Position numbers and translations under genes: made by a program
Notes under the pieces: generated by a model
Seen by the model: the letters and a program-made list of their open reading frames with translations, nothing else
Database searches by the model: none
Told to the model about the DNA's origin: nothing
Part shown: positions 37,096-49,800 of the stretch, piece by piece
Position numbering within the stretch: the first letter of the stretch is position 1
How the letters are laid out: the number at the start of each line of letters is the position of its first letter
Assembly: GCA_018654845.1 (NCBI GenBank)
Contig: JABIKU010000002.1
Location: 13,729 to 77,728, forward strand
Origin: Methanobacteriota archaeon
GTDB lineage: Archaea > Thermoplasmatota > Poseidoniia > Poseidoniales > Thalassarchaeaceae
Length of the DNA: 64,000 nucleotides
Reading direction: 5' to 3'

Positions 37096-37548
37096 GTGAT
37101 ATTGAGAAATATGAAACGGCAACAATTTGCAACCTCTATGTTAACATTAGCAATGATAACATTCGCAGGTCTTCTGATAATGTTTGTACCTGCCAAAGAT
37201 AATGGCCAAGGAGCCGAGGGACAAAACTTAGGAGAAGTTACTAACCTTGATGAAACATCTTCTACGGACAACTCCTCTACTGCTGTATCTTCATCCAGTA
37301 ATCCGGAAGTTTTCGACACAGTCATGACAGATCATGATGATGATGATTGGGATGATGATGATGATTACGAAGATGACGAAGATTCTGAAGACGAAGAAGA
37401 TGACGGCGATTCAGAAGATGAGGAAGATGACGAGGATTCTGAAGACGAAGAAGATGACGGCGATTCAGAAGATGAGGAAGATGACGAGGATTCTGAAGAC
37501 GAAGAAGATGACGGCGATTCAGAAGATGACGAAGATGATGAAGACTGA
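37096..37548 (+). CDS. Small membrane-anchored/secreted protein with a D/E-rich repeat tail
   Basis: N-terminal hydrophobic helix, Ser/Thr linker, then an almost purely acidic tail. Confidence 0.7.
   Translation: MILRNMKRQQFATSMLTLAMITFAGLLIMFVPAKDNGQGAEGQNLGEVTNLDETSSTDNSSTAVSSSSNPEVFDTVMTDHDDDDWDDDDDYEDDEDSEDEEDDGDSEDEEDDEDSEDEEDDGDSEDEEDDEDSEDEEDDGDSEDDEDDED
37372..37545 (+). repeat. Coding tandem repeat, 27-nt unit alternating DDEDSEDEE/DDGDSEDEE (54-nt higher-order unit x3)
   Basis: gatgacgaRgattctgaagacgaagaa / gatgacggcgattcagaagatgaggaa repeated. Confidence 0.93.
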
Positions 37549-37557
37549 GGGTTTTCA

Positions 37558-38856
37558 TTGGATTCAAACAATTCATTCTCTCGATATTCATTTCTATTTG
37601 TAATCGTAGCCCTATTACTTGTAGGTGACAAAGTTAGTCCACCGATGATTCAAAGTGTCGACGCAGCTTCACAATCCTGCCAAAGTTGCCATGGATCGTA
37701 TCGAGAAGCAGGATTATCGATGTATTCATCCCAACCTCTTGTTGCGAGTGCAGAAAATACGCTACGATGGACTGTTTCTGCCCCTTGGAGAAACGATTGG
37801 ATCGAACCAAATATGGAAATCACAGTATTGAATGGAATTGTTGATAATACAAATTTTGTCCCTTGGCAAGGTAATTTAGCTGCAGGTAGCTCGATTTCAG
37901 GATGGCTCAACGTCACCCCAGATCATAATGCAACTGAAATTGAAATCGCCATCACTCTCGATGTTGTAGCATATTACGACCACGCTTCATCAAAACGGCC
38001 TGATCGTCAATTCGAATCGGTTAGAATCTCAATGGTTGTAATTGTTGAACAAAAAAATTTGGCATTGAGCCCATCATTGGTTTCACTCGAAGAAGGAAAC
38101 AATCAAACATCATCTAAATTGTTTAATCTCGGTTCACAAACAATTACTGAACTCAATGGAACGGCACAACGAGGAATTGTAAGATTCGCACAATTAATCA
38201 ATACATCTGGAGAGATTACAACGACAAATTATTCTGGAAGTTTAGAACCAGGGTGGGGCGTTATTGTATCATATACTGGCCCTGAACCTGCTTCGAATGG
38301 GACGGATGTTTTGATAACTGGAAAATTGCCTTCGGGAGTTACTACCAGTGCATCAATGAGTGTGATTCCTATCCCAATTCCAGCACAATTACCCGATCCT
38401 CCACTTTCAGGAAAAGTTGCAGTATTCTATGGCTGGCTCGGAGTTGTAGTATTGGGCTTATTGATGGTTCAAGGATTCTCAAAACGTGCACTCGATCGTA
38501 TCTACAAAGATAATTACAAATCTGCAAAAAAGCAAGAAATTGATTGGGATGCAGAAATGCCGGCTGAGCGGGCGACCTATTGGTGGTGGCTTCATTATTC
38601 CTTGTTGGGTGCAGTCATTACCTTCACTGCAATCCATGTACTTGGTTTTGGTATCTCTGATACGATGCCCCCTTTAAGCGCTGATATTTGGTTAGGTATT
38701 ATCGCTATTGCAATTATTGCAATTGCGGGATACTCAGGACTTTATCCAAAACTTTCACGGAAATATTTACCTTGGTTTTCTTTCCGAAAAGGGCACATGA
38801 TTTTGGCAATTATTGGAACTATTTTGGCTCTTTGGCATAGTTATATTCTATGGTGA
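37558..38856 (+). CDS. Putative heme protein: signal peptide, CxxCH motif, beta-rich ectodomain, C-terminal ferric-reductase-like/cytochrome b TM domain
   Basis: CQSCHG near the N-terminus; two TM H-x13-H pairs (WLH...AIH, GH...LWH). Confidence 0.65.
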   Translation: MDSNNSFSRYSFLFVIVALLLVGDKVSPPMIQSVDAASQSCQSCHGSYREAGLSMYSSQPLVASAENTLRWTVSAPWRNDWIEPNMEITVLNGIVDNTNFVPWQGNLAAGSSISGWLNVTPDHNATEIEIAITLDVVAYYDHASSKRPDRQFESVRISMVVIVEQKNLALSPSLVSLEEGNNQTSSKLFNLGSQTITELNGTAQRGIVRFAQLINTSGEITTTNYSGSLEPGWGVIVSYTGPEPASNGTDVLITGKLPSGVTTSASMSVIPIPIPAQLPDPPLSGKVAVFYGWLGVVVLGLLMVQGFSKRALDRIYKDNYKSAKKQEIDWDAEMPAERATYWWWLHYSLLGAVITFTAIHVLGFGISDTMPPLSADIWLGIIAIAIIAIAGYSGLYPKLSRKYLPWFSFRKGHMILAIIGTILALWHSYILW

Positions 38857-38932
38857 CTTTGATTTTCTAGAATTTGAAAATCCAATACCCTACATAGAAG
38901 GGTTTGATGATGCAAGCCTTCTCGCCGACTTT

Positions 38933-40435
38933 ATGAATGCGTATGATGAACTACTTGCACGACTGAAAGATATCGATTTGATTTCACAAATAGGGGGCCT
39001 GCTCGGATGGGATCAGGAAGTGATGATGCCACCGAAAGCTGCAGCACTCAGAGCTGAACAAATCTCATGGATTTCAAAGACTGGCCATTTGAAAATGACC
39101 GATGCGAGAATTGGCGAATTACTCGATGAATTAGAATCTCACAAAGATCTGGATGAAGTCCAAGTAGGAAATGTTCGACTCGCCCGAAACAGTTACGATA
39201 AAGCGACAAAATTGCCAACTGAATTCGTTGGTGAACTGGCAAAACATCAATCCAAATCTCAGATTTCTTGGACCGAAGCTCGTGCCAAAGATGACTTCTC
39301 TATCTTTCGTGATGACCTTGTAAAGATGGTTGAAATGAGCCGCCTGAAGGCGGATTATTTAGGATATGAAAACCTCCGTTACGATGCTCTTCTCGATCTT
39401 TATGAATCGGGCCTAACAGTTGCTCGTGTTGACCCACTTTTCGCAGGACTGCGCGACAATGTCGCACCTCTAGTCAAAGCTGTAATCGATAGCGGAAAAC
39501 GGCCAAACATGTCTTTTGTTGAAGATAATAAGTGGGGTCAAGCTGGTCAAGAAGCGCTTTCACACGCTGTTTCCGAGACCATTGGTTTCGACTTTTCTGC
39601 CGGCCGCCGCGACGCATCTACACACCCATTCTGTGGCGGCTCAAATCCAGATGATGTTCGATGGACGACCCGATATAGCGAGAGTGATCCATTCGGCTCG
39701 CTTTATGGTTCGATGCACGAAACCGGCCACGGACTCTACGAACAGGGCAGACCCCGCAGCCTAGATTTCCAACCAACAGGAAATGCGAATGGCCTCGGTG
39801 TGCACGAGAGTCAGAGTCGACTTTGGGAAAACCAAGTTGGTCGAAGCAGAGAATTTTGCGAGTGGGCTTTGCCATTATGGCAAGAAAGTTTTCCAGAATT
39901 TATGGAAGGTGTGAGTGCAGAGGATCTCTGGCGTGCGGTAAATCTAGTTGAGCCGAGTTTGATTCGGGTTGAAGCAGACGAGGCGACTTACAATCTACAC
40001 ATTATGATTCGATATGAAGTCGAAAAGCAACTGATTGCTGGAGAAATTGAAGTCGATGACCTTCCTCAAGTTTGGGACGATATGTATGAAGAATTCTTGG
40101 GAATCAGAGCACCAAACCACACTTTAGGCGTCCTACAAGACATTCACTGGTCCTTCGGAGCCTTCGGATATTTCCCGACTTACACATTGGGCAACCTCTA
40201 CTCAGCTCAGTTGTTAGAAGCTGCCCGCAAAGTTTTGCCTGATCACGATGAGCAGATCCGTAATGGTGAATTTGAGCCACTATTGGCATGGATGCGCGAG
40301 CATGTTCACGCACGTGGTAGCATTATCGAGCCGGCCGCCCTCATTGAGGAAGCAACCGGCTCGCCACCTTCGCCTGATGCATTTGTCGCGTACCTACGAG
40401 ACAAAATTGAACGACTTTACGGCGTTTCAGCATAA
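38933..40435 (+). CDS. Carboxypeptidase M32 (Taq-type)
   Basis: WDQEVMMP, HPF, HETGH, HESQS, IRVEADE, QDIHW, GYFPTY; start ATG 38933. Confidence 0.95.
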   Translation: MNAYDELLARLKDIDLISQIGGLLGWDQEVMMPPKAAALRAEQISWISKTGHLKMTDARIGELLDELESHKDLDEVQVGNVRLARNSYDKATKLPTEFVGELAKHQSKSQISWTEARAKDDFSIFRDDLVKMVEMSRLKADYLGYENLRYDALLDLYESGLTVARVDPLFAGLRDNVAPLVKAVIDSGKRPNMSFVEDNKWGQAGQEALSHAVSETIGFDFSAGRRDASTHPFCGGSNPDDVRWTTRYSESDPFGSLYGSMHETGHGLYEQGRPRSLDFQPTGNANGLGVHESQSRLWENQVGRSREFCEWALPLWQESFPEFMEGVSAEDLWRAVNLVEPSLIRVEADEATYNLHIMIRYEVEKQLIAGEIEVDDLPQVWDDMYEEFLGIRAPNHTLGVLQDIHWSFGAFGYFPTYTLGNLYSAQLLEAARKVLPDHDEQIRNGEFEPLLAWMREHVHARGSIIEPAALIEEATGSPPSPDAFVAYLRDKIERLYGVSA

Positions 40436-40482
40436 GATTATACCAACGGAAGCGAGAAAACAAACGACGCTTAGCATCGACC

Positions 40483-41547
40483 ATGTCGAAGCGAAGTCTT
40501 TCAAATCTAGCTTCGTTCATTCGCGACATTGGTAGTTCTTGTTCAAAGGTTAGAATCATCGATGGGGTATTGATTGCCGGCTCAATAAACGGCAAATTGA
40601 ATGGCTGGGCAACTTCGACTGGCGAACTGCTTTGGAGTGTCGAAATCGATGGTATCATCGCTGATTTCGATTTCGAAAATGATACAATTTACACAACCGG
40701 GCCGAATAAATTATTCGCATTCTCAACAAATACTGAAAAAATATTGTGGAGTGAAGAATTGGAGGGCGGTGGCGACTTTGTGCGAATAATCAATGAAGAA
40801 ATCTGGGTCACATCTTCAGTGTATGATATTGAAGTGTTTGATTTTATCGAGGCAACAACCCAGCGGTTTTCGAAGAGTGGAAAATTACTAGAAAAGTGGA
40901 TCATTAACGAACGGCCATGGTTCCTCGGCGCAACACAAGGGGATGTTATTCTCGGCTTAGGTCGCCCTCGTTGTGGTGGAGTTCGGGTTCTGCCTGGTGA
41001 GATGTCCGAGCATTTTTTGCTCAGTAGCAATCAACCTGTGACTTCAGGAGCGAATTCGATTGACCGAATTTATTTCGGTCATTCGGATGGGACTGTAAGC
41101 ACTATCGATTGCAAATCTTTGAAGATTAACGATACCGCTCATCCCTCGGATTCTCTCGTCACTTCGATTATTAGTTCAGAAAATGGTTGGATATCAGGCC
41201 ATGAAGATGGAACGATTTGTTTTGATAATATGGATTTTCATTTTGATGGTAAAATCGATTCCATCGCTAATTTTGATGGAAATTGTTGGGCTAGTTTTTC
41301 GAATAATGGTAAAACGAATCTTGTAATCATCGACTCTGCGCAAAGCCAAACTTTCCTGGCTCATGAAAATAGGGTTAGATTTACCCATTCCGCCGACAAG
41401 GGGCTTGCCCTCGGAGATGACTCGGGAAAAGTTCTATTTTTTGAAATTGAAGTTGTCAAGCGCAGACTCGCTGAAAGTAATAATTCAGAAAAAGATGAGA
41501 AAAAGAGGGGACTGCTCAAAGACCGTCTCCGTCAGCTTCGTAGTTGA
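40483..41547 (+). CDS. PQQ/WD40-like beta-propeller protein
   Basis: TGELLWSVE, TEKILWSEE, GHSDGTV, GHEDGTI, GDDSGKV blade-like repeats. Confidence 0.7.
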   Translation: MSKRSLSNLASFIRDIGSSCSKVRIIDGVLIAGSINGKLNGWATSTGELLWSVEIDGIIADFDFENDTIYTTGPNKLFAFSTNTEKILWSEELEGGGDFVRIINEEIWVTSSVYDIEVFDFIEATTQRFSKSGKLLEKWIINERPWFLGATQGDVILGLGRPRCGGVRVLPGEMSEHFLLSSNQPVTSGANSIDRIYFGHSDGTVSTIDCKSLKINDTAHPSDSLVTSIISSENGWISGHEDGTICFDNMDFHFDGKIDSIANFDGNCWASFSNNGKTNLVIIDSAQSQTFLAHENRVRFTHSADKGLALGDDSGKVLFFEIEVVKRRLAESNNSEKDEKKRGLLKDRLRQLRS

Positions 41548-41552
41548 TATTT

Positions 41553-41606
41553 TTACAGTGGAAATTAACAAAATCATACCCTTGCATACCCCTATTTCCA
41601 GTGGAC
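41553..41606. promoter_or_regulatory. Pair of inverted ORB-like (Orc1/Cdc6 box-like) motifs
   Basis: ttacagtggaaat at 41553-41565 (+) and gtccactggaaatagggg at 41606-41589 (-) resemble the archaeal ORB core TCCAnTGGAAA plus a G-string. Confidence 0.4.
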
Positions 41607-41621
41607 TGCGGCTCTATTGGA

Positions 41622-41633
41622 GAAAGGTTTATT
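41622..41633 (+). promoter_or_regulatory. Candidate archaeal BRE/TATA promoter for the downstream structured element
   Basis: gaaagg-tttatt about 25 nt upstream of the first cUUCGg hairpin. Confidence 0.45.
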
Positions 41634-41657
41634 GACCCGACCCGCACCTGAGAACTT

Positions 41658-42297
41658 TGCCGCTTCGGTGAAGGGGTGTGGGGCCGCTTAGGCGGAACCC
41701 GCGGGCCACAAGAACCGAGCCCCGGAAATGGGGCGGTAGAACCGGAGATCGAAAGAGAACCGGGGAAGAGTTGGAACGCCCTGTGGGCGGGAAAACAACG
41801 GGAGAACTGAGGTGGGAAGAACCGGACGAAAGGAAGGGGAAAGAAGCAACAGGGAAAGCTGAGGAAAACATAACCGAACTGTTTCGACAGGGAAAACACG
41901 ACCAAAACAGAAAACCATCCCGAAGAGGTAAACGAGCGAAGGGCGGGAACCAGCAATGGAACAGACCTGAGGCACGGGTACGGGAAAACGAAGAGGAAAA
42001 GAACTGGACGCAAGGAAGGGGAAAAGAAACGGAGAGGAAACGAACTGGGAACGAGAGCGCAGAAATGCGTGGAGGACCAATACCGAGACGTGAAAAGAAC
42101 TGGTGAGAGCTAGGGATGGAAGCGGAGACGGCGAAAGATGGAGAGATCCAACAAGAGTCGGAAAAGGACGAGGAGACACAAGTAGTCTCGGAGTCATCTA
42201 CCCTTGGAAAGCAGGGGCCTTAGGGCCCCGGCGGACCGGGGACCCTGCGGAGTAGCAGGGAAAATGCTCCCCCAATGTGCATTTTTCCTGCTGCTCC
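41658..42297 (+). ncRNA. Candidate large structured non-coding RNA (family not recognised)
   Basis: Intergenic; 33 T in 480 nt over 41701-42180; about 10 short hairpins with GNRA/UUCG/UUAG loops; G-U wobbles consistent with the + strand; repeated GAAC and GGAAAAC linkers. Confidence 0.65.
42249..42297 (+). other. 19-bp inverted repeat (3' stem of the candidate RNA, or a terminator-like hairpin between convergent units)
   Basis: ggagtagcagggaaaatgc (42249-42267) pairs with gcatttttcctgctgctcc (42279-42297); both deviations are G-U pairs on the + strand. Confidence 0.7.
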
Positions 42298-42352
42298 CAC
42301 CTAATTCAAAAGCCCATTATTTTCTAAGACCTTAGCGGAGCGTTTCTCAATT

Positions 42353-43954
42353 CTATTCTTTGGGCCCAATCATTAATTCTGGTCTGACCCATTCTTCGAA
42401 TTGTTGATCTGTTAACAATTTTAATTCGAGCGCGCTTTCTCTAAGCGTCAATCCTTTCGTGTGTGCATTTTTTGCTATTTTTGCAGCATTATCATAACCA
42501 ATATGTGGATTTAATGCTGTTACTAACATCAAGGAATTTTCAAGATGAGACTTGATATTATCTTCATTGGCTTCTAGACCAATTACACATTTATCGGAAA
42601 AAGATCGACAAGAATCTGAAATTATTCGAACGCTATGAAGAAGATTATGGATCATCATTGGCTTGTAGACATTGAGTTCAAAATTACCTTGGCTTCCACC
42701 GATTGAAATCGCAGTATTATTGCCCATAACTTGGCAACATACCATCGTCATCGCTTCAGCCTGGGTTGGGTTGACCTTGCCTGGCATGATACTAGATCCG
42801 GGTTCATTGGCCGGAAGTGCAAGTTCTCCAATACCGCATCGAGGACCTGATCCTAACCATCTGATATCATTGGCGATTTTCATTAGTGATGCAGCGAGTG
42901 TGTTAAGCGCTCCTGATGCAGCGACAATTGCATCATGTGCAGCCAATTGTGCAAATTTATTATCTGCGCTAATGAATTGTAATCCGGTTTTTTCAGCTAT
43001 TTTTTCTGCAACGTTTTCAGCAAAATCAGGATGTGTGTTCAGCCCTGTACCGACTGCCGTTCCACCTAGAGCAAGTTCCAGTAAATCGGTAAGTGCAGCA
43101 TCTATTCGGCGAAGATCGGCATCAAGCATCGAGACATATCCGCCAAATTCTTGACCGAGTGTCAAAGGTACGGCATCCATCAAATGGGTTCTACCAATTT
43201 TCACGATGTTTTCGAATTCTTTGGCTTTATTTGCGAGTACAGTGCGTAAATGACGTACTGCTGGAATTAATCGATGATGGAATTCCTCGGCTGCAGCGAT
43301 ATGCATTGCAGTCGGGAATGTGTCATTACTGGATTGTGCCCGATTGACATGGTCGTTCGGGTGAACTGGAGTTTTGCTTCCAAGAACACCATTTGTCAAC
43401 TCGATTGCACGGTTCGCAATAACTTCATTTGAATTCATGTTGGTTTGTGTTCCAGAACCAGTCTGCCAAATTCTGAGTGGAAAATGATCGTTGAGTGAAC
43501 CTGAAATTACTTCATCACAAACAACTGTAATCAAAGAACCGACCTGTTCATTGAGTTGACCGAGTTCGACATTGGTTTCGGCTGCTGCTTGTTTGAGAAT
43601 ACCAAAAGCGCGAATAATTGCATATGGCATTGTATCGGTTCCAATATCGAAGTTGATTAGTGAGCGGGCTGTTTGAGCGCCATAATATCGGTCTGCTTGA
43701 ACTTCCACTTCCCCCATAGTATCTTTTTCAATACGAATTTGTCCACTATCTGCACGAGCTGAACGGCTCGCAAACTCCGGCTCGAGTCTTCTTGGTTGAG
43801 CATCTGCTACAAGCGAGGTTTCAATCATTTTCGAAATTGTAGCAGAGCGCCCTCCTGTGCGCCCTTTGCCAACTCTTCTATCGAGTTTTTTTGCCAATTC
43901 TTCAGGTATACTGATGCTCATTATTCTGCGGTCGCCCGCTCGGTGCTTCACCAT
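42353..43954 (-). CDS. fumC: Class II fumarate hydratase with an N-terminal ribbon-helix-helix extension
   Basis: [49 protein letters not shown]; about 70 aa extra at the N-terminus. Confidence 0.96.
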
Positions 43955-44072
43955 ATTATTATCTGCGTTAATTAATTATTAATAAACTTCACCTTTTGAA
44001 GAGTAGTAACACGTTCGCACAAATTAATAAAGTCATATTATAGGAAAATACCCGAGATAATATCAGATAAAT

Positions 44073-44561
44073 TCAATCACGATCAACGCGAATAATCATC
44101 TGTGGTTCAGCGGGTTTGTCGCGGAAATCAGTTTGGATATTTTCGATTGCTCGAACTATTTCCATTCCATTGGTAACTTCGCCAAATACCGCATGGTTTC
44201 CATTCAACCAAGGCGTCTCTATAGTAGTCAAGAAAAATTGTGAACCACCTGTATTTCTGCCTGCATTTGCCATCGAGAATAGCCCTGGACGATCATGAGC
44301 CTTTGCGAGAGCTGATGGTTCGCATGGAATTTGCCAACCTGGCCCTCCTGTTCCAGCTGCGCGACTGTTTGGGTCCTTTGATTTTGGACAACCCCCTTGA
44401 ATCATGAAGTCCTTGATAATCCGATGGAAATGGAGTCCGTTGTAGAATCCAGAGTCAACTAATTTAAGGAAATTTGCAGTTGTGTCAGGGCAGTCGTCAG
44501 TGTAGAGTTTGATGTTAATGTCTCCAGCAGAGGTGTACATTGTTACGTTCGTCATGGGCAA
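44073..44561 (-). CDS. Cyclophilin-type peptidyl-prolyl isomerase
   Basis: FYNGLHFHRIIKDFMIQGG, SMANAG, GSQFF, HAVFGEV. Confidence 0.95.
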   Translation of the reverse strand: MPMTNVTMYTSAGDINIKLYTDDCPDTTANFLKLVDSGFYNGLHFHRIIKDFMIQGGCPKSKDPNSRAAGTGGPGWQIPCEPSALAKAHDRPGLFSMANAGRNTGGSQFFLTTIETPWLNGNHAVFGEVTNGMEIVRAIENIQTDFRDKPAEPQMIIRVDRD

Positions 44562-44613
44562 TCCTGTAGTCGGTTATTCAAGAGGATAATGGTCTAGTGC
44601 CGTAACAACACTA

Positions 44614-45726
44614 ATGGGTTACAATCAGTTTGATAGTGTCATGAGTGAACTAAGTGGACATGATTGTCCTCGGTGTAATCTAGAATTATACATAGAAACC
44701 AGTGGGCTGGATGAAGGCGCTGATTTATTGATTTGTAAAGAGTGCTGGGGGGTGGCGGTCGTCGCTAAATCGATGGAGTCAATCATTACAAATGGAAGAG
44801 AATTAGACGAAAAGAGTGCTGTCCCAGACACAAACAATATTGGATGCAATTGTCCGATTTGTTCAACTAAAATGAAAGAAATTGAATTAGACGTGCCTGA
44901 AGAAATCAGAGATAAATTAAATTTAATTGACGTGTCTGAATCTAAAAAGGTCATAATTGACTCTTGTGAGAATTGTCCTACCTTCTGGTTTGATGCTGGA
45001 GAATTAGATCTTCTAAATGGAATTCAACCTAAACTAAGGGGTGTGTTTTTTGAACCTGAATCGAATAGGCTAATAGATGATAAAACACTAACTGAAGAGG
45101 ATTTATACCGTAAAACAATGATTAGGAAAGGCGCGGGTTTTGGAGTATTAGTCTTCGCTGCTTTGATTGCATCTCTGGGCGACCCGGTTTTGATATTCGC
45201 AGCAGGAATTTTAGGGATTGGAGGAATAATTGCTATGTTGTCTAGTGACCCTGAACAAACTCTGGCTAAAGGCACCTGCGATAAATGTTTGAAGGAAAAT
45301 AAATCTCTAGCATGGAATTGCCAAAGAGGTGGGTGTTGGGCACATATTTGCACCGACTGTCAAACTGTGGACGTTGATCCAGTGGAAGCCTATGCCAAAA
45401 CTCTCGGAAAGGTTGCAGTTGGAGTAGTTATGGTAGGCATAGTAATCGCAGTCCTGCCAATGGGAGCTGGATCATTACCTTCTGGAGCACCTTTTGGAGC
45501 AAGTGAAAAGGAGGGAGAAAGGCCCGATTGGTGGGATATGTTACTCTGTAGGGAATGTGTGGAAGTGGCCAAAGAAGAGGCCGCTAAGGAAGGAGATGAA
45601 ATGAATCAACAAAATACGATTGAACCTATCTCGGATGGTTATTGCAATTACATAGATAGTCTAAATGGTAAAAAATGCAAAAGGCCAGATGTTAGAGACT
45701 CCGGTTATTGTTATGTCCATAAGTAA
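44614..45726 (+). CDS. Multi-zinc-finger membrane protein (zf-TFIIB-like ribbons, TM helices, C-terminal C3H finger)
   Basis: CPRC/CKEC, CPIC/CENC..FWFDAGEL, CDKC, CTDC, CREC, C..C..CYVH. Confidence 0.7.
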   Translation: MGYNQFDSVMSELSGHDCPRCNLELYIETSGLDEGADLLICKECWGVAVVAKSMESIITNGRELDEKSAVPDTNNIGCNCPICSTKMKEIELDVPEEIRDKLNLIDVSESKKVIIDSCENCPTFWFDAGELDLLNGIQPKLRGVFFEPESNRLIDDKTLTEEDLYRKTMIRKGAGFGVLVFAALIASLGDPVLIFAAGILGIGGIIAMLSSDPEQTLAKGTCDKCLKENKSLAWNCQRGGCWAHICTDCQTVDVDPVEAYAKTLGKVAVGVVMVGIVIAVLPMGAGSLPSGAPFGASEKEGERPDWWDMLLCRECVEVAKEEAAKEGDEMNQQNTIEPISDGYCNYIDSLNGKKCKRPDVRDSGYCYVHK

Positions 45727-45745
45727 GGATAAGAATTACTGAAGA

Positions 45746-46147
45746 TTAGGCTACAGTTGACCCTGGCAAAACACCATTCGGTATTTCTAGAAGGTTGACA
45801 GAACCATCTGGATCTAGTGCGCCCAATATAAGAAATTGAGATTTAAATCCAGTCGGTAGTGTCTTCTCACCGAGATTTATCGCACCAACAACCATCCTAC
45901 CAATCAATTGACTGCGTGGATAATTTGTAATTTGAGCAGAACTGGAAAGAGTTCCAACAACCGGTCCAAAATCTACATGAATTTTGTAAGAAGGTTTGCG
46001 CATTTCTGGGAATTCTTCAACATCAATTACCTTTCCAGCACGCATGTCGAGCGCGAAATAATCTCCAATTCCAACATACTCTTTGCGTTCAAGTTTTTCG
46101 GGATGATACGGCTCAACCTCTGAGTCGATTACGTGCTGATCACCCAT
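45746..46147 (-). CDS. csaA: tRNA-binding/chaperone protein CsaA (OB fold)
   Basis: LDMRAGKVIDVEEFPEMRKPSYK, DFGP, SSAQIT. Confidence 0.85.
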   Translation of the reverse strand: MGDQHVIDSEVEPYHPEKLERKEYVGIGDYFALDMRAGKVIDVEEFPEMRKPSYKIHVDFGPVVGTLSSSAQITNYPRSQLIGRMVVGAINLGEKTLPTGFKSQFLILGALDPDGSVNLLEIPNGVLPGSTVA

Positions 46148-46732
46148 TCACTCACCAGTAATATCAGATCGGACCAACAAAGGAACAAGATTTACTCCAG
46201 CCGATTCAAACGCTTCAGCTCCGCCTTCTTGACGATCGAGAATTGTGATGCAGGCTGCAACATCACAGCCCATATCACTTAGGCGAATCGCTGCCTTCAA
46301 AGCAGACCCGCCCGTTGTCGTCACATCTTCTAGCAACACTACACGGTCTCCACTTTGAATGGTCGACCCCTCAATTCCTGGAGGATTTCCCGTTTTTCTC
46401 CCTCCGCGCCCCTTTGGTTCCTTGCGAACCATGAAGCCGCGAAGCGTACTGCCTTTGCCTGCCTTCGCGATTGCAATTCCAGTGAGGGGAACGGCGCCGA
46501 GCTCTAGTCCACCAACCGCATCGACCGCACCGAGATTTTCAATCTCAGAATGAATCAGAACACCGAGTAGATGTGCGCATCCCGGATCCATCATCACCGG
46601 TTTCATATCGAAAAAATGTGGACTTTGACGGCCGCTTGCGAGTGTGAATAATTCGTTGGGAGAATAGAGATATGCTAATTCCTTGACCCTCTCGATTAAC
46701 TTCGATTTTGCTTCTCCAGCGCTCGTCGACAT
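46148..46732 (-). CDS. pyrE: Orotate phosphoribosyltransferase
   Basis: FTLASGRQS, ELGAVP, VRKEPK, VVLLEDVTTTGGS PRPP motif. Confidence 0.93.
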   Translation of the reverse strand: MSTSAGEAKSKLIERVKELAYLYSPNELFTLASGRQSPHFFDMKPVMMDPGCAHLLGVLIHSEIENLGAVDAVGGLELGAVPLTGIAIAKAGKGSTLRGFMVRKEPKGRGGRKTGNPPGIEGSTIQSGDRVVLLEDVTTTGGSALKAAIRLSDMGCDVAACITILDRQEGGAEAFESAGVNLVPLLVRSDITGE

Positions 46733-46870
46733 ACTTTCTCCCCACCCTGCGGTCACCTCGATTCGGATGAATGTTCTCTATGCTAACTACCCGAAAAGAC
46801 ACCATTTGCCCTGAATGTTCTTGGACGGCCGGTGTTGGTTATGTGATGTTGTCGCGGAGCCTGTAGTCTG

Positions 46871-49800
46871 ATGTCGAATAATGGAGCTGATTTATTGGCC
46901 ATCGATTCGGAACGGCTGAAGGCTGAATATGCAGCTTATGAGACATGGCTTGAGCGCCGAACTGAAGAGGTATATCAGTTGGCTAGTGAGGCGAAATCTA
47001 AAGGATTAGATTTTGAAAATTTTGTTGAAATTCCACGTGCGTCCGACCTTGCGAGCCGGACGGAAAAATTGCTTGAAACATATCTTGATGGAATGAAAAT
47101 TGAAGATGATTTGCGCGCTTTATTATTGACTACGGATCGTGAGAGTGCTTCGATTCAAATCGCCATCGATGTGTCGAAAAAAATGCATGAAGACACTGGT
47201 GATTTGCAAAAATCAATTGATTGTGGGCTGAGAGTTGGTTTGGCAGTATTGACAGAGGCGGTATTGGTTGCTCCACTCGACGGGATTGGTGATGTTCGAA
47301 TTCTGAATAATGCCGATGGTTCAGAATTTTTATCTATTGATTTTTGTGGTCCGATTCGGGCTGCCGGTGGTACGGCACAGGCGCTTGGGGTGTTGATTGG
47401 AGACAGTATTCGTAGAGAATTAGGAGTCTCGCGTTATATCCCAACAACTCCTGAAGTTGAGCGGGTCAAGGAAGAATTTGGATTGTACCGTTCTGGCTTG
47501 CAATACAAACCTCCTCCCGAGGAAATCGAAGTAATTGTTCGCGCTTGCCCAGTGATGGTCAACGGTGAAGAAACCGAGCGCATAGAATGTTCAGGATACA
47601 AGGAAGTTCGTAATATCGAAAATTCGAATGGGACCCCCAGAACAAGAATTCGCGGTGGAGTTATGCTAGTTATCGGCGAAGGACTTTGCCTGAAGGCGCC
47701 AAAAATTCAGAAACACACTGAACGGATGCAAATTCCGGGTTGGGAATTCATCGCTCAATTTGCAAAAAAAAGTAAGAGCGAAGAAATAACAATAGGTGCA
47801 TTCAAACCTAGAAAAATTCCTACAATTTCTAGATTCATGGACGATATTATCGCTGGGAGGCCGGTCTTTGGAGAGCCAGGCCAGCCAGGTGGATTCAGGC
47901 TTCGATATGGTCGAAGCAGAGCAACTGGTTTAGCTGCAGCTGGAATTCATCCTACCACAATGGAGGCGATGGGTGGGTTCCTTTCTGTCGGAACCCAGAT
48001 GAAAATTGAGCGGCCCGGAAAAGCCTGTGCTGTTACGCCTTGTACTGATCTAGAAGGTCCGACGGTTTTGTTGAATGATGGAACTTTTCGACGAATAGAA
48101 TCAATAACAGATTGGCGAAAAAATAAACCCAATGTCCTGACTATTTGGGATTCTGGCGAAATATTAATTGGCTATGGAGAATTCCTTGAAAATAACAAAA
48201 ATTTAGTTCCTTCACCCTACAATCGAGATTGGTGGTCTGTAGATTTAGCTGAGAGGCTTGACATGCCACAAAAAGTTGAGGACTTCGCTTCACTGCTAGA
48301 CTTTGATCGCTCGGAATTACCTCTCGGTTTACCATTTAATGGAGCAATAAAGCGAAGCGGGGAAGACCCGGTTGAACGTGTTTGGCGAAAGCGAAACTGG
48401 TCACATTACCTTCGTGATTTAGAACTGAGTTGGGAACAAATCAAAGAGATTTCAATTACCCACGGGACTGCAATTCCGCCGCCTTGGAATCTATGGTGGT
48501 CGGATTTGCCAATTTCTTTTTGTTCAAGTTTAATCGACAATATTTCTAAATCAATAATCGAAGAAAATTCTCTTCGATTTATCGGTGCTGCATCCGAATG
48601 GTCATCAGACCTTGACTTGGAAGATATCGGTTTACCGGATCCAACTACTAGCGAATGGCCGCTATGGACCCAAGTGAAAAATCATGGAATAGTAAAATCA
48701 TCACTGATGACCCTTGGTATTTCTCATCATCACGATGGAGAAGATATAGTCATTGAATCCGGATGGGAGGGTCTGTTGGAAGGTTTTGGCTTCAACATCG
48801 TAAATGGTTCTGCAAGAGTTAGGGTTGAGGCCGCCCCACATATCGAATATCGATTACAACAAATCCGTGGTGCAACGAATATTATTGAACAAGAAGAACT
48901 TAGATTGAAGGAACTTGAATCTCGCCGCGATGTCGAACGGATTGCGGCTACTACTACCGCTCGACAGGTAGGGAAAAGCATTAGTGAAACTGAACAAATT
49001 GGTGATGCTGCTGCTGCAAAAATTACCGATGAAGGACCTGATGATGATGCAGCCCTCCTTCAATCAAGAAAAATTCTTGACGACCACGAGGTCGATCGCT
49101 GCCTTTGGCTGGTCAGAAAATTATCCACATTACGTTGGGAAGATGCAGTTCCTGTTCGTATTGGAGCAAGGATGGGGCGACCCGAAAAAGCTGCTCGTCG
49201 GGAAATGAAACCTCTAACTCACGCCCTTTATCCAATCGGTGAAAACGGCGGCCCACAAAGATTGATGGGGAAGGCTGCAGAAAAAGGTCGTATCAGAGTT
49301 GAGCTTTGTCGACGATATTGCTCAAAGTGCGGACAAGAATCGCCGAATCTCAATTGCCACCACAGACCTGATCCGGAAATTCCGAAGGAATGTGGGGGCA
49401 AAACCGCCGAACGTGAGAGGAAGCCTGGGGCGATGATAAGAAGGCGAAGAGGTAGAAATTCGTGGGTTCATTTGGATCGTTTACTAGAGGTGAAGCGGCG
49501 CACCTTAGGACTCGATCGTTTGCCGCAAAAAATCAAATCTGTCAAAGTATTAACTTCTGAATCTCAAACACCAGAACCTATTGAAAAAGGCATACTGCGC
49601 GGCAAACATCAACTTTCAGTTTTCCGCGATGGCACTGCTAGATACGATATGATAGATGTTCCCGTCACTCACTTTAGGCCAAGTGAAATTAGAACTTCGT
49701 GGCGCGAATTAAAAGACCTTGGATATACCACCGATGTCAAAGGAAATGAATTGATTTCTGATGAGCAAATTCTCGAATTGTTTCCTCAAGATATTATTCC

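Follow-up and report, generated by a model that had tools for sequence, protein, structure and literature searches.

The window analyzed here is a stretch of 64,000 nucleotides from contig JABIKU010000002.1 of an archaeon of the order Poseidoniales. On its minus strand lies an ORF of 533 residues (43954..42353), open from its ATG, which encodes a ribbon-helix-helix (RHH)-like domain, a linker and a class II fumarase. A basic N-terminal arm (residues 1–9) and the RHH-like domain together make up residues 1–48 (43811..43954, minus strand; pI 11.3). The domain is laid out as a predicted β-strand (residues 10–16), helix A (residues 18–28), a loop consisting of G35-R36-S37 and helix B, which starts at residue 36. 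The linker (residues 49–73; 43736..43810, minus strand) is variable in sequence, with a mean identity of 22%, and nearly constant in length. The FumC core (residues 74–533 and the stop codon; 42353..43735, minus strand) is a class II fumarate hydratase in which the catalytic positions are kept. A candidate operator (43968..43986, minus strand), the top match to our matrix genome-wide, is located over the TATA position of the gene. Further upstream, on the same strand, is a gene for a cyclophilin-type PPIase (44073..44561), which precedes fused and unfused fumC alike.

The first-pass annotation reported about 70 residues preceding the FumC start with no methionine next to it, which is correct: the fumarase starts with RIEKDTMG at R74, leaving an N-terminal extension of 73 residues, and the peptide quoted there corresponds to residues 9–48. 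Codons 44–73 contain no in-frame ATG, GTG or TTG, and the only Met codons of the extension are M1, M12 and M43. An open run of 73 codons has, by itself, a probability of about 1.4% of arising by chance, which is not the whole story since 28 of the 38 relatives that have a full fumC carry the extension and all 120 of the protein-database homologues listed cover it. Among 29 fused genes, residues 2–48 have a mean identity of 72% and a pN/pS of 0.26, the core 79% and 0.19, and the linker (residues 49–72) 22% and 0.78, the ratios being uncorrected proportions. The RHH-like domain is under purifying selection, as is the core.

Public gene calls frequently start at M12 (522 residues) or M43 (491 residues), as would be expected if the extension were untranslated or an annotation artefact. 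The selection on the domain makes this extremely improbable, as do several other observations. The start position is conserved in the fused genes, with an ATG in 82 of 84 and a GTG in the remaining two, and 78 of the 84 have no ATG in the last eight codons before the core. Start and core are separated by 69–74 residues in 81 of the 84 fused proteins. Contigs from five of eight marine RNA libraries, which as contigs carry no strand or start information, run through the domain, linker and core. In four runs an RNA contig ends within the first 62 bases of fumC and in three the intergenic region is crossed; all eight runs are assembled contigs, from which the transcription start is not readable. 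Full-length members are named only fumarase in public annotation, and one fragment carries the NCBI name 'ribbon-helix-helix domain-containing protein'. This naming, together with the clipping of the domain from gene calls, may explain why the fusion was missed.

The assignment of this region to the RHH superfamily, made in the first-pass annotation, is supported by profile, fold model, signature residues and selection, although the window sequence itself lies below the Pfam cut-off. In the comparison with Pfam RHH_1 (PF01402) that was suggested there, all 24 aligned members match at E≤1 (best E 1.2e-5), but the window domain scores 16.6 bits (E 0.0076), under the curated cut-off of 20.5 bits. 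The family profile finds its top PDB matches, at weak E values (0.25–0.5), in H. pylori NikR and B. subtilis MazE, in each case within the RHH domain, and the profile alignment with NikR is gapless across 39 residues. An AlphaFold2 model of residues 1–52 (pLDDT 80) contains helices at residues 18–28 and 36–51, and no strand is assigned by DSSP in this single chain. The proposed fold check nevertheless came out in favor of an RHH domain, as a search of 48,161 chains gave RHH proteins (ArtA, AmrZ, NikR, SvtR, PutA52, Arc and CopG) as its top structural matches, with Z scores of 4–5.1, which are low in absolute terms, as expected for a model of 52 residues. Foldseek also placed RHH proteins on top, but none at E≤0.001, and a two-copy complex prediction of residues 1–52 scored 0.29 against a mark of 0.42, which we count neither for nor against the fold. 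A search of 1.84 billion representatives gave 51 matches, the best 41 of which are the same Poseidoniales domain. The weak tail of 10 matches consists of free RHH proteins, and all five that were scanned match RHH_1.

Conservation within the domain follows the RHH signature. R10, I11, S15, P17 and S37 are invariant in all 84 fused proteins, as is a Ser or Thr at position 13, while R36 is found in 83 and G35 in 81. Positions 12, 14 and 16 are always hydrophobic. In the register taken from the NikR alignment, I11, S/T13 and S15 occupy the outward-facing strand positions, the first of which is presumably an arginine in H. pylori NikR. G35-R36-S37 fits the G-X-S/T/N loop that precedes helix B in RHH proteins and that, together with strand residues, contacts phosphates and bases, as described in the available text of PMC2777438. 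Thus, the domain is predicted to be a member of the RHH superfamily by fold and signature, though not by the Pfam cut-off. The isoleucine at the first outward-facing position could also be taken to mean that the domain has lost DNA binding and now acts as a dimerisation clamp or docking module, as the RHH domain mediates dimerisation in E. coli PutA (PMC5293562, in the portion available). We consider this improbable, as the invariant residues are precisely the predicted DNA-facing strand and loop positions and a clamp would leave the promoter motif described below unexplained. In addition, FumC is tetrameric without any RHH domain.

The fumarase core (residues 74–533) matches TIGR00979 with 787.8 bits (cut-off 664.75), and its score against aspA TIGR00839 (488.1 bits) is below the cut-off of that family (681.2). 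It aligns without gaps to residues 3–461 of E. coli FumC, with 271 of 458 positions identical. T187, H188, S318, K324, N326 and E331 of E. coli FumC correspond to T256, H257, S387, K393, N395 and E400, which we take to be the Thr-His pair, the SS-loop serine and the catalytic Lys, Asn and Glu; for most of these residues, PDB titles name mutants. The six positions are invariant in 86/86 fused and 49/49 unfused Poseidoniales sequences. Class I fumarase was not found in any of the 41 genomes searched, and the same search was positive in 5 of 14 control genomes; fumC is therefore probably the housekeeping fumarase of the cell.

The fusion is found in most Marine Group II ocean archaea, and about three in ten Poseidoniales genomes are without the domain. 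Among 201 Poseidoniales genomes, fumC is present in 195 and the N-terminal domain in 139 (136 strong matches and three divergent fused forms), with one further genome matching by a separate small protein only. Nearly all genomes of the window's family have the domain (91 of 99), and its occurrence in the second large family is patchy (47 of 99, a figure that includes one false match). The first-pass annotation named absence from close relatives as evidence against its reading; the domain occurs in all 11 genomes of the window's genus, and its absence applies to the roughly three in ten genomes of the order. Outside Poseidoniales, no match extends to residue 1, and the RHH strand pattern was not seen before the core in the seven other Thermoplasmatota and four bacterial homologues examined. 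An additional 98 short matches to the main domain form small clusters, many of them on short contigs or labelled partial. In the window's genome, the sole other RHH_1 match is a stand-alone protein of 125 residues (L174:1480-1854, on G000:C9), and no other RHH-enzyme fusion was detected in that genome.

Fused and unfused genes are interspersed on trees of the fumarase core, from which two short-core rows were excluded and in which two others are unlabelled. The state changes 9 times in a FastTree tree of 149 rows and 11–12 times in an IQ-TREE tree (LG+G4) of 51 chosen rows, and the strongly supported branches require at least five changes. None of 200 bootstrap trees groups the fused, or the unfused, genes as one clade. 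The locus lies behind the cyclophilin gene in 25 of 49 unfused and 51 of 80 fused cases with sufficient flank. Judged on the fumarase-core gene trees alone, the simplest reading would be a single gain followed by repeated losses. A search of the 400 bases before 50 unfused genes gave no decayed RHH remnant (best protein E 0.13); three divergent fused genes used as controls were recovered at protein E values of 4.5e-8 to 2.9e-6 and were missed by the DNA profile.

A divergent type of the RHH domain is found in L060, L063, L070, L177, L179 and L181 (genera g12 and g133). Its N-terminal arm differs and its linker is shorter, with 59–62 residues to the core where measured. It has no Pfam match, but it retains the strand and loop residues as well as the promoter motif. 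All six of its matches among 401 genomes sit at fumC, and no free donor copy was found in five unfused genomes. In g12, the fused genes of this type branch from among unfused ones, and regain or recombination may have occurred in this genus. The unfused fumC genes of L036, L053, L055, L057, L061 and L068 (g12) and of L090 and L091 (g19) have an identical replacement promoter sequence, which hints at shared loss or transfer. In L077 (G194:C9), a g11 genome, fumC and its promoter are nearly identical to those of g10 genomes, which may reflect binning contamination or transfer.

The region upstream of fumC (43955–44072) is A/T-rich, as the first-pass annotation stated, and its suggestion that this region is a target of the protein is supported by a candidate motif that tracks the fusion across lineages. 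The motif, TTA(A/T)TAA, was derived from the first 29 fused upstream regions and afterwards counted in all. It occurs within 45 bases before the start in 85 of 85 fused genes and in 0 of 50 unfused genes, and still in none of the 50 when one mismatch is permitted; one fused locus without upstream sequence was left out of the count. Three genes with the divergent RHH type, found later, all have the motif, giving 88 of 88. In 83 of the 85, the first copy occupies −31 to −25, and the motif persists even in loci of about 60% G+C. In the window, counted from the ATG, TTATTAA is located at −31, an overlapping TTAATAA at −28 and a copy with one mismatch at −20. A second non-overlapping site, with one mismatch allowed, is present downstream of the TATA position in 60 of 85 fused promoters, mostly at a spacing of 8 or 11 bp and at 20 bp in genus g13; the other 25 have one site and no second non-overlapping copy. 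Five g13 loci (L027-L029, L044 and L144) carry an RHH variant with an altered start of helix B. Two copies of the motif are 20 bp apart in four of these five promoters, and the variant and its spacing form a natural pair for studying the co-variation of protein and operator.

The motif is also rare. The heptamer is found upstream of only 7 of 1237 ORFs in the window's genome, and the full element has a matrix score of 25.4, compared to 15.9 for the next genomic site. In 15 fused genomes picked for having a 10-bp palindrome at fumC, this palindrome is a single copy in 13 and has extra copies in two; of 15 unfused genomes, 14 lack it and one has it. A wider regulon was considered and rejected, as there is no second strong site in the genome and the next matrix matches are mostly intragenic. 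Since the motif and the RHH coding sequence adjoin, one deletion or start shift would remove both, and their joint loss is partly expected without any binding. Independent fused/unfused pairs agree in five of five cases (p 0.0625), a number of pairs that cannot reach significance. As read from the sequences, the best point against mere linkage is that the divergent RHH type kept both the strand and loop residues and the motif.

The TATA position in the window's genome is T-rich at −30 to −28 and A-rich at −27 to −25, and the first copy of the motif coincides with it. The motif could, thus, be an unusually strong TATA box, and the RHH domain might instead activate transcription, bind degenerate sites or loosely tether fumarase to the chromosome. 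The strongly basic character of the domain would suit such roles, a strongly expressed neighbouring ncRNA has a similar element with one mismatch, and the RHH protein AmrZ activates as well as represses (PMC3325190, available portion). However, ordinary promoters near −30, tRNA genes included, have degenerate words of the TTGAA/TTCAA/TTCAT type and no canonical TATA box, which suggests an unusual TBP specificity in this lineage, and the heptamer is present in only 1 of 42 tRNA upstream regions, away from the TATA position. A TATA box would also account poorly for the second site downstream in most fused promoters, for the survival of the motif at high G+C and for its uniqueness as a strong site. 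Therefore, we regard this alternative as rather unlikely.

We consider it likely that the predicted RHH domain binds the TTA(A/T)TAA element in one mode or another. The reading we prefer, with a confidence slightly better than even, is that the RHH-fumarase binds this element, which lies over the fumC promoter, and represses the gene that encodes it. The motif is rare, accompanies the fused gene in every case and is unique in the genome as a full element, which points to the autoregulation of one gene. In this mechanism, the four RHH chains of a FumC tetramer would pair into two dimers, each chain attached by a flexible linker whose length is fixed. The dimers would bind TTA(A/T)TAA at approximately −31 to −25, where a leaderless gene has its TATA element, and in many cases the second site 8 or 11 bp downstream as well. 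The occupied TATA region would then block TBP/TFB and repress fumC. Such a loop would hold the only fumarase detected in the cell at a set level, sensing the amount of enzyme rather than substrate, and its regulon would be fumC alone. Repression is the most likely outcome compared to activation, as read from the position of the site only. An archaeal precedent is SvtR, an RHH protein that represses its own promoter near the TATA box, probably by competing with TBP/TFB (PMC5569661, in the part available). Separately, the stand-alone 125-residue RHH_1 protein of this genome may be another binder of the motif.

The first-pass annotation further proposed that the regulator responds to fumarate or malate. 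A true trigger enzyme of this kind would have its autoregulation switched by fumarate, malate or active-site occupancy, with substrate freeing the tetramer from the promoter, in the way that proline frees PutA. It has a precedent in PutA, in which an N-terminal RHH domain on a metabolic enzyme forms a switchable autogenous repressor (PMC5293562, as far as its available text goes). The narrow range of start-to-core distances suggests a geometric constraint, and the fusion has been kept across the depth of the order, though a free RHH protein could presumably repress equally well. Substrate gating, as judged from these sequences, has no support, however: the linker appears to drift freely, with its constant length unexplained, and the protein has no sensing domain. 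A column comparison revealed no fusion-specific docking surface on the core. Only four columns, scattered over the core, are kept in the fused proteins but differ in at least three unfused lineages, compared to 23 in the reverse comparison, so that no docking patch is visible; these columns neither show nor exclude gating. R126 and K127 of E. coli FumC, the former of which we take to belong to its activator site, are replaced by T195 and P196 in the window protein. We therefore regard a trigger enzyme as possible but doubtful. Similarly tentative is the fuller proposal that two RHH dimers hold the tetramer on the TATA box of its gene until fumarate or malate releases it, and that domain and operator were lost in some lineages, and perhaps regained, as a unit. 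If true, fumarase would be the first enzyme of the Krebs cycle to double as transcription factor of its own gene and as flux sensor, and archaea would have a trigger enzyme of the PutA type.

The adjacent ncRNA was also named in the first-pass annotation as a possible target, which we did not find supported: its promoter holds only a one-mismatch copy at the TATA position (41629–41635), which lies outside the 40 best genome-wide matrix matches. The ncRNA region itself (41628–42310) is a G+C- and purine-rich non-coding stretch just beyond the fumC stop. Its contig word depth reaches 1e4 to 4e5 in four of four marine RNA libraries, in which fumC is mostly at 3–20, and all 16 loci of the same genus have it downstream of fumC. 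No Rfam match reaches the gathering score in 38000–48000, and the ncRNA gives chance hairpin matches only. Elsewhere in the neighborhood, 44614–45726 (plus strand) encodes a protein of 370 residues that has hydrophobic segments, several zinc-ribbon-like Cys-X2-Cys motifs and sub-threshold Pfam matches only. An ORF of 150 residues at 37096–37548 (plus strand) has an N-terminal hydrophobic segment and a long C-terminal Asp/Glu tandem repeat.

Marine Group II archaea are among the most abundant uncultured archaea of the ocean, and their gene regulation is almost unknown. The fusion would tie the TCA cycle directly to transcription in these organisms. As both the protein sequence and a short candidate operator are known, binding, repression and gating can be tested in vitro without culture, and the natural unfused orthologues at the same locus provide built-in controls.

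Few enzymes carry a DNA-binding domain of their own, and among those with an RHH domain the textbook case is PutA. The trifunctional (type C) PutA of E. coli likewise has an N-terminal RHH domain in frame with an enzyme of central metabolism, and PutA52 (2rbf) is among the structural matches of our model (Z 4.5, rmsd 2.4, 43 aligned residues). The two RHH domains are only 9% identical, which argues for an independent fusion. PutA combines PRODH and P5CDH with a flavin and a membrane-binding switch, whereas the RHH-fumarase is a class II fumarase with none of these; PRODH and P5CDH domains were not found in it, and Pfam and NCBIfam give lyase/fumarase domains and a weak RHH only. PutA dimerises via its RHH domain, in contrast to FumC, which is known as a tetramer without such a domain, and the promoter of the RHH-fumarase, unlike that of PutA, is of the archaeal TBP/TFB type. 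Autogenous repression is established for PutA (PMC5293562, available text), while for the RHH-fumarase we infer it. The RHH-fumarase is, thus, not a PutA; it is PutA-like in architecture and, at most, in working. Compared to E. coli FumC, the core is alike and the RHH-bearing extension of 73 residues sets the window protein apart. With stand-alone RHH repressors of the CopG/NikR/Arc/MetJ type (PF01402) it shares the strand-helix-helix pattern and the G-X-S loop, but it differs from them in being fused to an enzyme, in having no nickel-binding or antitoxin domain and in its Poseidoniales-specific sequence family. We found no description of an RHH-fumarase fusion in the open literature, to which our search was confined, and in the available text of a survey of archaeal fusions (PMC11237513) FumC appears only unfused or with an acetyltransferase. 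What is new here is the contrast between fused and unfused genes and the candidate operator motif.
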